Source: Candidatus Thorarchaeota archaeon (GTDB taxonomy: Archaea > Asgardarchaeota > Thorarchaeia > Thorarchaeales > Thorarchaeaceae). From it: DNA of 58,599 bases. The translations under genes were made by a program, and so were the position numbers. Location: positions 16,118 to 74,716 of the forward strand of contig JBHLRP010000009.1 of assembly GCA_048882485.1 (NCBI GenBank). Direction: 5' to 3'. The notes below the pieces were generated by a model, which was not told the origin of the DNA, made no database searches, and saw nothing but the letters and a program-made list of their open reading frames with translations. Below, piece by piece: positions 3,709-33,396 of the stretch (positions within the stretch are counted from its first letter, which is position 1; the number at the start of each line of letters is the position of its first letter).

Positions 3709-4371
3709 ATGACGTTAGAAACCGAGATTATAGAAATCACCCTTCGGAGTCTGTTTGTATCAAGTCTTGCGGCACTTCTTGCCGCAGGTATTGGGATTCC
3801 CGTGGGTGTTACTATTGGTCTGAAGAAGTTTAGAGGTAGGTCACACCTCAAAGGTGTAGTCAACGGTCTGATGGCACTGCCTACAGTCGCCCTTGGACTG
3901 CTGCTATATCTCGTGTTCTCAAATGCAGGACCTCTTGGCTTTCTCAATGTACTCTATTCTCCCTTTGCCATGATCATCGGGCAGACAATCCTGATTCTTC
4001 CAATAATAATCAGCATCTCCACTGAAACCGTCGAGAGTGTTGACCCAAGTATTCGTGAATTGGCTATGACACTTGGAGCCGATGAAAGAGGTGCCTTTGC
4101 ATCTGTACTCAGAGAGTCTGTAGGAGGGATTCTTCTGGCAGTGTCAGCTGCGTTCAGTAGAGCAATCTCGGAACTTGGTGTCGCATTGATGCTGGGAGGA
4201 AACATTCAGGGTCTCACAAGAGTCCTAACCACATCCATTGCACTTGAAACAACAAGAGGTGAGATCGCTCTTGGCCTCGGTCTCACTGCCGTTCTGCTCT
4301 CTCTCATGCTGGCATTCAATATCCTTCTAAGAATTGCTGAGAAACGGGTGAGGTGGTGGCTTTGGGAGTAA
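3709..4371 (+). CDS. tupB: Tungstate ABC transporter permease TupB
   Basis: Hydrophobic; LPTVALGL, FSRAISELG...GGNI.G.TRVLTTSIALE. Confidence 0.92.
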   Translation: MTLETEIIEITLRSLFVSSLAALLAAGIGIPVGVTIGLKKFRGRSHLKGVVNGLMALPTVALGLLLYLVFSNAGPLGFLNVLYSPFAMIIGQTILILPIIISISTETVESVDPSIRELAMTLGADERGAFASVLRESVGGILLAVSAAFSRAISELGVALMLGGNIQGLTRVLTTSIALETTRGEIALGLGLTAVLLSLMLAFNILLRIAEKRVRWWLWE

Positions 4372-6510: not shown

Positions 6511-7373
6511 TAGAGGTTACGGATCAAGACTTCTCTATTGAGCAGGTCATATCGCAGACTAGACGACCTGAGATGGGTGCCATTGTCATCTTCCTAGGCA
6601 GTGTCAGAGATACAAGCCGAGGGAAGGTCGTTGAGAAACTGGAATTTGAGGCTGACGATGAACAAGCTGTGAAAGAACTTGAGAAGATTCGTGATGAGGC
6701 AATCTCCAAATTCGGAGTTTCTGATGTGTCGGTTGTTCATAGAAAAGGCAAGATTGAGGTTGGACAGAACATCGTCATTATAGTTGTAGGCGCCGCTCAT
6801 AGAGCTGACGCATTTCAGGGATGCAGGCATGTCATTGAGCGATTGAAGGAAATTGTACCAATGTGGAAGCACGAGTTCTACGACGGCGGCGACCATTGGG
6901 TTGGAGAAACCGACGCAAAGGAGCGATCGGAAACCAGAATGGTGGATATTTCTGAGAAGCCTCAGGTTTTCAGAAGAGCTGTTGCGGTTGGTGAATTAAT
7001 TCTCAATCCCAATACAATAGAGGCAGTACGCCTGGGAACAACAAAGAAAGGGAATGTGCTTTCTGTGTCTGAGATAGCTGGCATTATGGCTGCCAAGAAG
7101 ACTTCTGATATCATACCGCTATGCCATCAAATACCCCTGTCTTCGGTGGATGTATCGTTCAAGTTTCATGATGACCGTATATCAGGTACGTGTGAAGTCG
7201 TTGCCACATATTCCACAGGAGTCGAGATGGAGGCCCTAGTTGGCGTCACAATAGCACTTCTCTCAATCTGGGACATGACAAAGTATCTGGAGAAGGACTC
7301 AGATGGACAATATCCAACCGCTCGTCTGGATGGAGTACGAGTAATCAAGAAAGAGAAGGTCGATCTGAAGTGA
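6507..7373 (+). CDS. moaE-moaC: Fusion of molybdopterin synthase catalytic subunit MoaE (N-terminal) and cPMP synthase MoaC (C-terminal)
   Basis: GAIVIFLGSVR...HRKG...LKEIVPMWKHE, then MVDISEK...KKTSDIIPLCH...TGVEMEAL...IWDMTK; ATG at 6507 follows GGAGG and overlaps the moaA stop. Confidence 0.92.
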   Translation: MIEVTDQDFSIEQVISQTRRPEMGAIVIFLGSVRDTSRGKVVEKLEFEADDEQAVKELEKIRDEAISKFGVSDVSVVHRKGKIEVGQNIVIIVVGAAHRADAFQGCRHVIERLKEIVPMWKHEFYDGGDHWVGETDAKERSETRMVDISEKPQVFRRAVAVGELILNPNTIEAVRLGTTKKGNVLSVSEIAGIMAAKKTSDIIPLCHQIPLSSVDVSFKFHDDRISGTCEVVATYSTGVEMEALVGVTIALLSIWDMTKYLEKDSDGQYPTARLDGVRVIKKEKVDLK

Positions 7374-32672: not shown

Positions 32673-32703
32673 CTGCACATGCAAAAGCATCAGTAGAAGT
32701 AGT

Positions 32704-32745
32704 TGAGGAAGTGCTCACGTGGATTCCAGCATGAGGACTTCCTCA
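32704..32745. terminator. Long hairpin at the 3' end of the micropeptide operon
   Basis: TGAGGAAGTGCTCA (32704-32717) and TGAGGACTTCCTCA (32732-32745) form a 13/14 inverted repeat between convergent units. Confidence 0.5.
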
Positions 32746-32831
32746 CGAGTAAGACAACGGCCTTCTGCTATTTCGTTGTGAAGGCATGAGTCTTTGAAGT
32801 TAGACTGGATGCAATTGTCATCGTAAATCAT
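32715..32831 (-). CDS. 38-aa acidic, three-Cys micropeptide MIYDDNCIQSNFKDSCLHNEIAEGRCLTREEVLMLEST
   Basis: Manual translation; AGGAG SD supplied by the last codons of the upstream peptide. Confidence 0.6.
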   Translation of the reverse strand: MIYDDNCIQSNFKDSCLHNEIAEGRCLTREEVLMLEST

Positions 32832-32837
32832 TGCAAT

Positions 32838-32927
32838 CTATCTCCTGAAGTATGAGTATGCTATTGCGCGAGTAGAGATTTTCCTTCTAATCTGCTTCTT
32901 CTGAATTGCTTTCTTTGCTATTGCCGT
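32838..32927 (-). CDS. 29-aa cationic micropeptide (T/M)AIAKKAIQKKQIRRKISTRAIAYSYFRR
   Basis: ACG 4 nt after GGAGGTGA (alternative in-frame ATG at 32966); paralogous to 32932-33039. Confidence 0.6.
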   Translation of the reverse strand, partial: TAIAKKAIQKKQIRRKISTRAIAYSYFRR

Positions 32928-32931
32928 ATTA

Positions 32932-33039
32932 TCACCTCCGAAAGGCGTACGCGAATCCGATGGCATAGGTGGAGATTGTCCTCCTCACCTTCGCGTTCTT
33001 TTTCACAGATGACTTCCGAGTATTCTTAGTCAGAACCAT
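32932..33039 (-). CDS. 35-aa cationic micropeptide MVLTKNTRKSSVKKNAKVRRTISTYAIGFAYAFRR
   Basis: ATG 33 nt from TTATATA (33072-33078); paralogous to 32838-32927. Confidence 0.65.
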   Translation of the reverse strand: MVLTKNTRKSSVKKNAKVRRTISTYAIGFAYAFRR

Positions 33040-33071
33040 GATGCTTCACAAGAATTAACACACAAAATGAG

Positions 33072-33078
33072 TATATAA
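33072..33078. promoter_or_regulatory. TATA box, possibly bidirectional
   Basis: TATATAA (+) / TTATATA (-) between the divergent micropeptide operon and 33121-33396. Confidence 0.55.
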
Positions 33079-33120
33079 CACGGAGCCACAACTAAGGGTC
33101 ACAAAACAGAGTCACATAAT

Positions 33121-33396
33121 GTGACTGCTAAGTTAGGAGTGAAGAGCATGAGCGACTCTCTAAAGGAGATAACTGTTACAGGTTTGATGTCAAAGATATT
33201 CGACTCCTACACTGTCACGACGGACGATGGCACTGAGTACAAGCTGTCAGCAATAATGCCGTGGGAAGCTGTTTCTCCTGACTTTGATAGTGAGAAGTTT
33301 GCACTTGTGTTGGGGAAGCGTGTTAGCGTGAGCGGAATGACTGATGGCGACACCGTATGGGGCGCGGAGATAGTCAAGGAATCCAAATCGGAATGA
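33121..33396 (+). CDS. Small hypothetical protein (beta-rich, OB-fold-like); likely start MSDSL at 33148
   Basis: Protein-like composition, AGGAG upstream of 33148. Confidence 0.7.
   Translation: MTAKLGVKSMSDSLKEITVTGLMSKIFDSYTVTTDDGTEYKLSAIMPWEAVSPDFDSEKFALVLGKRVSVSGMTDGDTVWGAEIVKESKSE

Follow-up and report, generated by a model that had tools for sequence, protein, structure and literature searches.

What is encoded in a gap of about 450 bp that has hitherto appeared empty in the genome of a Candidatus Thorarchaeota archaeon? The gap lies in a 58,599-nucleotide stretch of contig JBHLRP010000009.1 (assembly GCA_048882485.1, positions 16,118 to 74,716), which was analyzed as a whole and is referred to here as the window. 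An earlier reading of the letters alone, called here the original prediction, had listed a TATA box, three open reading frames (ORFs) below the length cutoff and a hairpin at this place, and had proposed that they form a micropeptide operon. All of these elements were located on the minus strand, where the gap encodes three peptides, P1, P2 and P3, of 35, 29 and 38 residues. The cassette is self-contained within about 420 bp: a promoter under operator control, the three ORFs for P1 to P3 and, at the end, a stem-loop. The sequence comparisons described below indicate that it is very probably a real, regulated microprotein operon, and they suggest, with much less assurance, what the peptides might do.

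Coding capacity was assessed from orthologs of the 491-bp region in five genomes of the same genus, with identities of 78-94%. Across these orthologs, none of the three frames carries an indel or a stop. The ratio of nonsynonymous to synonymous substitution rates (dN/dS) in the proposed frame is 0.54 for P1, 0.19 for P2 and 0.33 for P3, compared to 1.02 and 1.05, 2.30 and 1.07, and 0.86 and 1.16, respectively, in the other two frames of the same strand. Constraint is strongest in the C-terminal halves, where dN/dS falls to 0.06 for residues 15-29 of P2 and to 0.27 for residues 20-35 of P1. Codon positions were also compared family-wide, on an alignment guided by the protein sequences. Pairwise differences at the first, second and third positions are 0.30, 0.31 and 0.52 for P1, 0.34, 0.28 and 0.58 for P2, and 0.49, 0.40 and 0.59 for P3, differences at third positions being 1.2 to 2 times more frequent than at the first or second. 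The codon-level conservation that had been named as a check on the original prediction is present, with dN/dS well below 1 in the proposed frames only and third positions the most variable. The frames of P1, P2 and P3 are under purifying selection.

P1 and P2 are paralogs, as had been proposed. They share the motif ISTxAI..(A/S)Y.(F)RR, which is written with different codons in the two genes (TCC ACC and TCT ACT, GCC ATC and GCA ATA, CGG AGG and AGG AGA in P1 and P2). The consensus of P1, from an alignment of 24 sequences, is MAL[AT][TK]NxRNxSV.KNK...ST.A[IL]..A[YF].[YF]RR, and that of P2 is MA[LI]AKK...IST.A[IL]..[AS]Y.YR(R). The 13 residues before the stop are the best conserved part of both basic peptides, whose length is fixed at 27-36 residues in the alignments. 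P3 (16 homologs) has a variable N-terminal half followed by [LI][TS]..EVL.[LW]EAT. Its earlier description as an acidic Cys peptide fits the close orthologs but not the family at large, in which the Cys is not conserved, the net charge ranges from −6 to +5 and only the C-terminal [LI][TS]xxEVLx[LW]EAT is kept.

The family to which these peptides belong is widespread within narrow taxonomic limits. A search of Asgard genomes of the kind that had been suggested, using a basic-peptide profile built from nine sequences, found homologs that keep the frames and the motif in 80 of the 86 genomes of the taxonomic family, with one to ten matches per genome and open frames mostly of 34-38 residues. The recurrence of frames, lengths and motifs in the five orthologs, in paralogs of the same genome and in these 80 genomes is far beyond chance. 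When the phylum was sampled, the profile matched 63 of 76 genomes of the family and none of 225 genomes of 29 other families. Genus g29, which the profile overlooked, has the cassette in diverged form, preceded by the same operator. The P1 profile found 33 matches among 1.84 billion representative proteins, 28 of them stand-alone ORFs of 32-38 residues, and none of the 33 is a domain of a larger protein; a few had already been annotated by pipelines as "hypothetical protein". The microprotein family is therefore nearly universal in, and among the searched genomes restricted to, one family of the phylum, the Thorarchaeota. Literature on small proteins in Asgard archaea yielded no description of P1, P2 or P3, and this is a real microprotein operon that is described neither in the literature nor in family databases. 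The idea that the C-terminal motifs are docking tails of larger proteins was rejected, since in this genome the motifs end these small ORFs only.

The three ORFs are tightly spaced, and their translation appears to be coupled. As originally noted, each Phe-Arg-Arg-stop end spells the Shine-Dalgarno sequence of the next ORF, GGAGGTGA at the end of P1 and AGGAGA at the end of P2. Paralogs and other genera likewise have their Shine-Dalgarno sequence within the final Arg codons. The predicted translational coupling is borne out in its geometry across genera, as far as sequence can suggest it, but not in the P2 start, whose ATG has been lost in this genome, a point to which we return below. P2 and P3 also share a reading frame in nine of nine loci from three genera, separated by a single stop (TAG in eight of the nine) and 0-2 codons. 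This shared frame is absent from genome G024, and a PylD gene was not found in the present genome. Read-through of the stop to join P2 and P3 was set aside on these two grounds, and fixed spacing is the simplest explanation for the shared frame. A frameshift fusion of P1 and P2 is likewise unsupported, as it is the P1 frame that is selected in the overlap region. A longer P2 of 42 residues would start at an in-frame ATG (32966), a codon that is present in G000 and G005 only and is not conserved.

The hairpin listed in the original prediction exists, although it is no mere appendage, as its 5′ arm lies inside the coding sequence of P3. Within a 91-nt piece the stem-loop folds at −30.7 kcal/mol (z = −4.3), and none of 200 shuffled sequences was as stable. 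The P3 codons E-E-V-L-M make up the 5′ arm, L-E-S lies in the loop, and the 3′ arm contains the Thr codon, the stop and the bases after it. Each of the 16 P3 homologs has the E-V-L-x codons paired with the Thr codon, the stop and the 6-7 bases beyond; 88% of the cells in the alignment are paired, versus 26-52% for slid partners. Both sides have changed in two of the pairs, from GC to AU in four instances and from CG to UA in two. Third positions in the 5′ arm are almost frozen, which indicates constraint on the RNA, whereas in the loop codons L-E-A-T they change freely without altering the residues, which indicates constraint on the protein. The end of P3 is thus doubly coded, and because the 5′ arm is made of the E-V-L codons, part of the conservation of the EVL motif arises at the RNA level. 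It provides a clean example of dual coding, with selection acting on the same bases for a peptide motif and for an RNA stem. Most homologs have T-runs after the stem that are longer than the one found here. We take the stem-loop to be a putative terminator or a structure protecting the 3′ end.

The region ahead of P1 is more uniform than any ORF of the cassette. The upstream 91 nt have a mean identity of 90.5% among the orthologs, compared to 77-90% for the ORFs, and the segment from the palindrome through the first P1 codons is a multicopy element picked up by DNA searches throughout the genus. Promoters aligned across many genera share the palindrome, two more TGTGAC-like sites, a block composed of a B recognition element (BRE) and a TATA box, and TTGTGAA just before the ATG. 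The TATA block reads GTGGCTyCGCTATATATAC in most paralogous promoters and TTATATA at the present locus. Four half-sites of the TGTGA type surround the TATA box at fixed spacing. The composite operator pattern has 21 sites in five other well-assembled genomes and none when the pattern is reversed as a control. Seventeen of the 21 precede a basic short ORF, with the ATG at +86 in 16 and at +85 in one.

The same arrangement of palindromic operator and TATA box also occurs in this genome ahead of a gene for a bactofilin-domain protein of 435 residues (C17:40036; L014:2710-4014, minus), and homologs of this protein in genera g5 and g29 carry the operator as well. A second type of operator, GGTTTGG-N4-CCAAAC(C), stands directly before a TATA box (TTTATAT). 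It is found only twice in this genome, before a major facilitator superfamily (MFS) transporter gene (C45:4893, plus strand) and about 155 nt before the cassette on contig C56 (C56:7363, minus strand), and it is also found ahead of basic short ORFs in loci L026, L030 and L043. Between the MFS gene and the single-peptide cassette ahead of it lie the cassette's own hairpin and a second promoter.

The palindrome provides a lead to the regulator. Its core, TCAC-N5-GTGA, lies beside the TATA box and is the core of the TrmBL1 site of Thermococcales (TGM, TATCAC-N5-GTGATA; PMC4706686), which is why the regulator may belong to the TrmB family. Compared to the TrmB-family regulons of Thermococcales (PMC4706686), with which it shares a palindromic operator of this core beside the TATA box, the site found here differs in its flanks (G..C versus TA..TA in TGM), in its extra direct half-sites and in its targets, which appear unrelated to sugar metabolism. 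This genome has eight TrmB-family genes, two of which (C56:5085-5924 and C45:902-1687) are 1.5-3 kb away from microprotein loci.

The cassette belongs to a set of loci with different histories. Elsewhere in this genome, a full triplet is present on C56, a basic ORF paired with P3 on each of C131 and C157, and single basic ORFs on C45 and C8. An approximate regular-expression count of about 50 sampled cassettes gave basic-basic-P3 as the commonest layout (28), followed by a single basic ORF (17); several seeming pairs of a basic ORF and P3 actually contain a diverged P2. P3 is always last and was never seen without a basic peptide upstream. Synteny around the present, C9-type locus extends over 11 loci in genera g1, g5 and g7, with a GNAT gene, a gene for a 198-residue membrane protein, the cassette, a divergent 82-residue gene, a desulfoferrodoxin gene and a ThrC-like gene as the conserved set. 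The C56-type locus keeps neighbors of its own in five loci from genera g1, g7 and g25, and the C45-type arrangement, a single basic ORF directly upstream of the MFS transporter, is kept in five genera. The present locus and the C56-type paralogous locus have kept their neighbors since before the genera split. A viral or mobile origin was rejected, as viral contigs contained no match to the cassette (plasmid collections were not searched); together with the synteny across genera, this marks the loci as old and resident. In G024, by comparison, five dispersed full copies (L053, L058, L062, L066 and L067) are 88-97.5% identical and have unrelated flanks. Their similarity runs from about 2 nt ahead of the palindrome to just past the stem-loop, all 15 ORFs are intact, and one copy sits at the ancestral, GNAT-linked place. 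Five near-identical blocks with unrelated flanks point to homogenization of copies within the genome.

Table 1. Features of the microprotein cassette and its surroundings, with positions counted from the first letter of the window.
Feature	Position	Strand	Description and basis
Operator palindrome GTCACATTATGTGAC (GTCACA-N3-TGTGAC)	33111..33125	−	Perfect palindrome; first base 86 nt upstream of the P1 ATG
Third half-site TGTGACC	33097..33103	−	Kept in most operator-type promoters of the family
BRE-like GTGGCTCCG followed by TATA box TTATATA	33072..33089	−	TATA box at 33078-33072; putative promoter, by analogy with archaeal promoter architecture
Fourth half-site TGTGAA	33045..33050	−	Between TATA box and ATG, near the expected transcription start; TTGTGAA in most copies
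P1, basic microprotein	32932..33039	−	35 residues and TGA stop; ORF, dN/dS, alignment of 24 sequences
P2, basic microprotein	32838..32927	−	29 residues and TAG stop; first codon ACG; ORF, dN/dS, alignment
P3	32715..32831	−	38 residues and TGA stop; N-terminal half variable, C-terminal helix LTREEVLMLEST conserved; ORF, dN/dS, alignment of 16 homologs
Shine-Dalgarno sequence GGAGGTGA for P2	32932..32939	−	Built from the last Arg codons and stop of P1 (CGG AGG TGA); 4 nt ahead of the P2 start
Shine-Dalgarno sequence AGGAGA for P3	32841..32846	−	Built from the last two Arg codons of P2 (AGG AGA TAG); 9 nt ahead of the P3 ATG; conserved in orthologs
3′ stem-loop	32704..32745	−	Overlaps the last P3 codons and stop; folding, conservation in homologs
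Short T-run CTTTTG	32682..32687	−	About 17 nt past the stem-loop; possible archaeal termination signal
Divergent 82-residue gene	33148..33396	+	ATG 22 nt beyond the palindrome; weak, below-threshold matches to DUF5666 and DUF5818

P1 and P2 carry net charges of +6.2 and +7.1, their mean Eisenberg hydrophobicities are −0.21 and −0.26, and the hydrophobic moments of their last 14 residues at 100 degrees are 0.27 and 0.20. They contain no Cys and almost no Trp, and have no long hydrophobic face. AlphaFold2 modeled P1 as a single helix over residues 7-33 with a predicted local distance difference test score (pLDDT) of 72. P2 and P3 were modeled as one chain, P2-stop-P3, with the TAG read as Q solely to join them, and this model, which bears on secondary structure only, has helices over the conserved ends (pLDDT about 92 for P2 and 83 for P3) with no confident packing (predicted template modeling score 0.31). 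A complex prediction of P1, P2 and P3 with alignments scored 0.04 and was counted neither for nor against an interaction.

We propose the following model for the cassette. A dimeric regulator, possibly of the TrmB family, would bind the palindrome and the half-sites flanking the TATA box and the transcription start, and would silence the cassettes until a signal arrives. Upon induction, a single mRNA with a short leader would be made, from which P2 and P3 would be translated by coupling through the Shine-Dalgarno sequences inside the preceding Arg codons. P1 and P2, as hydrophilic polycations with a predicted C-terminal helix ST-x-A-[IL]-x-x-A-Y-x-Y-R-R, would most likely bind a polyanionic target inside the cell, such as RNA, the ribosome or DNA. 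P3 would be made in fixed proportion to them, and its acidic C-terminal helix would most likely pair with the basic peptides or buffer them. Small polycationic ribosome binders are known in the eL41-type ribosomal peptides, which P1 and P2 resemble in size, in very high positive charge and in a predicted single helix. They have no sequence similarity to such binders, apart from a marginal match to a uS11 tail given below, and unlike core ribosomal proteins they belong to a family that is restricted to one archaeal family, multicopy and fast-diverging. A genuine, family-specific three-microprotein operon with this regulation and mechanism is, taken as a whole, the best explanation that we can offer, plausible yet short of probable. 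The part that concerns polyanion binding and buffering is possible but rather doubtful.

Several observations weigh against this model. None of P1, P2 and P3 matched a family in Pfam or NCBIfam, a feature-based search of the ESM Atlas gave no usable match, and a profile search of the PDB returned one marginal match only, to the basic tail of uS11 (E = 0.046), so that homology gives no lead to function. The N-terminal half of P1 has a dN/dS of about 1 among close orthologs and may be constrained as DNA or RNA instead of protein. The first codon of P2, which the original prediction had given as Thr or Met, is indeed ACG in this genome (32925-32927), ATG in four orthologs, and CTG in two further genomes of the genus (G015 and G016; loci L006 and L022). 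The rest of the P2 ORF is intact behind a strong Shine-Dalgarno sequence despite these starts; a near-cognate start or re-initiation may be used, or P2 may have been silenced very recently in this genome. The regulator is a lead at most, as the TrmB assignment comes from the likeness of the motif and from two neighborhoods, one of which is not conserved: the C56 TrmB gene is syntenic across genera, and the C45 TrmB gene is common to only one close relative. A conserved TrmB neighborhood at the C45-type locus was rejected, being lost beyond that relative. The four operator sites that do not precede a basic short ORF of the family lie before another ORF of 33 residues (one), a bactofilin-domain protein (one) and a 365-residue membrane protein without a family (two). 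With the bactofilin-domain protein, the unassigned membrane protein and the MFS transporter as neighbors or co-regulated genes, the context suggests the envelope no less than it does RNA or DNA. Finally, a housekeeping nucleic-acid binder accounts less well than a conflict or dosage system for the several diverging copies per genome and their homogenization.

None of the four functional options in the original prediction was confirmed, and the alternatives, in descending order of weight, are exported or envelope-active peptides, a toxin-antidote module, arrest peptides, precursors of ribosomally synthesized and post-translationally modified peptides (RiPPs), and an RNA or DNA element. Under the weightiest of these, which we regard as unlikely, P1 and P2 would be leaderless peptides that act outside the cell or on its envelope in the manner of leaderless bacteriocins or phenol-soluble modulins, perhaps leaving through the MFS transporter, with P3 as an immunity or helper peptide. 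Leaderless multi-peptide bacteriocins are an established class, and those of Firmicutes, such as aureocin A70 and enterocin L50 (PMC6131525), are likewise tandem paralogous cationic peptides of about 30-45 residues, leaderless and predicted to be helical; the peptides here have about 30-35 residues and no signal sequence. The numerous, fast-diverging copies homogenized within genomes, the single-peptide cassette directly ahead of an MFS transporter in five genera, and the restriction of the second operator in this genome to that transporter and the C56 cassette are in keeping with export. However, the bacteriocins are hydrophobic or amphipathic and rich in Trp (PMC6131525), whereas P1 and P2 are hydrophilic (mean Eisenberg value about −0.2), with moments of 0.2-0.3, almost no Trp and no core that is strongly amphipathic or hydrophobic. 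The bacteriocin genes lie beside ATP-binding cassette (ABC) exporters and immunity genes, often on plasmids (PMC6131525), whereas the cassette is chromosomal and syntenic and its locus holds neither an ABC exporter nor an immunity gene: the neighbors are the DUF5666-like 82-residue protein, desulfoferrodoxin, the 198-residue membrane protein and GNAT. The MFS transporter has its own promoter and adjoins only the C45-type locus. The cassette further differs from the bacteriocins in its acidic-tailed third peptide, and there is no sequence likeness. A toxin-antidote module, in which the basic peptides would arrest growth unless restrained by repression and by an acidic-tailed P3 from the same mRNA, would account for the tight operator, the opposite charges of the peptide tails, the variable number of homogenized copies and the position of P3, always last and never without a basic peptide. 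Yet about 17 of some 50 sampled cassettes, by the approximate count given above, are basic-only and lack P3; the loci have long been syntenic and gave no match in viral contigs (with plasmid collections left aside), and no known toxin or antitoxin family was matched in Pfam or NCBIfam (PADLOC was not searched). We consider such a module distinctly unlikely.

Action in cis is improbable in our view. The C-terminal residues of arrest or leader peptides would stall the ribosome, perhaps on sensing a ligand, as does TnaC, an arrest peptide with ligand-dependent ribosome stalling, and would thereby set the translation of the next ORF. The concentration of conservation in the last 13 residues and the fixed length of 27-36 residues would fit, and because the stop codon lies within the next Shine-Dalgarno sequence, a paused ribosome would control re-initiation. 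A precedent exists in SpeFL, whose stalling depends on the capture of ornithine (10.1101/604074) and which is also a short ORF with conserved basic and aromatic residues before the stop and a tight stop-to-start geometry. Peptides of the SpeFL type are single-copy leaders of structural operons, whereas up to ten profile matches occur per genome here and no structural gene follows the present cassette, which is succeeded by the stem-loop, the T-run and a convergent gene; even at the C45-type locus, the hairpin and second promoter cut the cassette off from the MFS gene. With no regulated gene downstream, arrest in cis is unsupported at the present locus. RiPP precursors modified in trans, for example by cross-linking of a tail rich in Tyr, Phe and Arg, are quite improbable. 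Short length, a conserved N-terminus (MALxxN), an aromatic and Arg-rich C-terminus and several copies are what one would expect of them, but the basic peptides lack Cys, and both of their ends are conserved in place of a leader and a variable core. No radical S-adenosylmethionine, cyclodehydratase, lanthionine or protease gene lies within about 4 kb of the five own-genome loci, as judged from ORF lists and Pfam scans of selected neighbors, nor does a modifying-enzyme gene follow any of the 34 operator sites examined, and the RiPP reading is unsupported for this reason. A reading in which conservation concerns chiefly the RNA or the DNA, as a regulatory RNA or as a mobile element bounded by palindromes, and the ORFs are incidental, is very improbable. 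Conservation is indeed higher in the promoter and over the first 25-50 nt of P1 than in the coding parts, the N-terminal half of P1 evolves with a dN/dS near 1, the 3′ stem-loop is conserved with compensatory changes, and the five G024 copies share exactly the block from palindrome to hairpin between unrelated flanks, with sharp boundaries that coincide with the ends of the promoter and terminator. Against this stand the frame-specific dN/dS of 0.06-0.33 in the C-terminal halves, the loop codons L-E-A-T that vary in the third position with unchanged residues, and the preservation of ORF lengths and starts across the searched genomes of the family. Neither an Rfam nor a tRNA scan of the whole window gave a match. 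Palindrome-bounded miniature elements derived from IS200/IS605 differ from the cassette, which has no transposase nearby and no variable insertion, since two locus types are stably syntenic across genera, and which has no matches in viral contigs.

Returning to the proposed operon, its copies may form part of a larger system. We tentatively envisage, with considerable doubt, a family-wide inducible regulon of Thorarchaeota of an undescribed kind, in which multicopy polycationic microproteins and a co-translated acidic-tailed partner would be induced together with a bactofilin-domain scaffold, a membrane protein and, via the second operator, an MFS transporter. Gene conversion would keep the copies similar, and the peptides would be effectors that, under a specific stress, remodel ribosomes, nucleic acids or the envelope, or that are directed against competitors.

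Interest in Asgard archaea stems from their position as the closest prokaryotic relatives of eukaryotes, yet hardly any of their small proteins are known, since ORFs of such short length are skipped by gene callers. The promoter of the cassette is among the most strictly conserved in these genomes, and the cassette offers an entry point to a new microprotein family, to its regulator and to a regulon of microproteins, a bactofilin-like protein and a transporter. As the peptides are short enough for synthesis, tests of binding, toxicity and translation need no cultured Thorarchaeon.

A few further observations concern the surroundings of the cassette and its copies. In 10 loci of genera g1, g5 and g7, synteny links the divergent 82-residue gene to the cassette, with which it probably shares a control region; the TATA box (33072-33078) is symmetric, and the two units may share one bidirectional, co-regulated promoter. 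The cassettes and flanks on C131 (3.9 kb) and C157 (2.5 kb) are near-identical and probably represent an assembly duplicate or strain variant, not two loci. Locus L081 (JBHLLF010000018.1), from a close relative with 92% identity in the neighboring 198-residue protein, is labeled Candidatus Hermodarchaeota, which is probably a naming inconsistency in the public record, the other relatives being labeled Candidatus Thorarchaeota. The long 5′ leaders of the basic short ORFs of the C56 type (C56:~7230-7260) and on C8 (upstream of 65124; L015:~4060-4100) share CATGAGTCG...CGACTACT, which can form a small AGTCG/CGACT hairpin.

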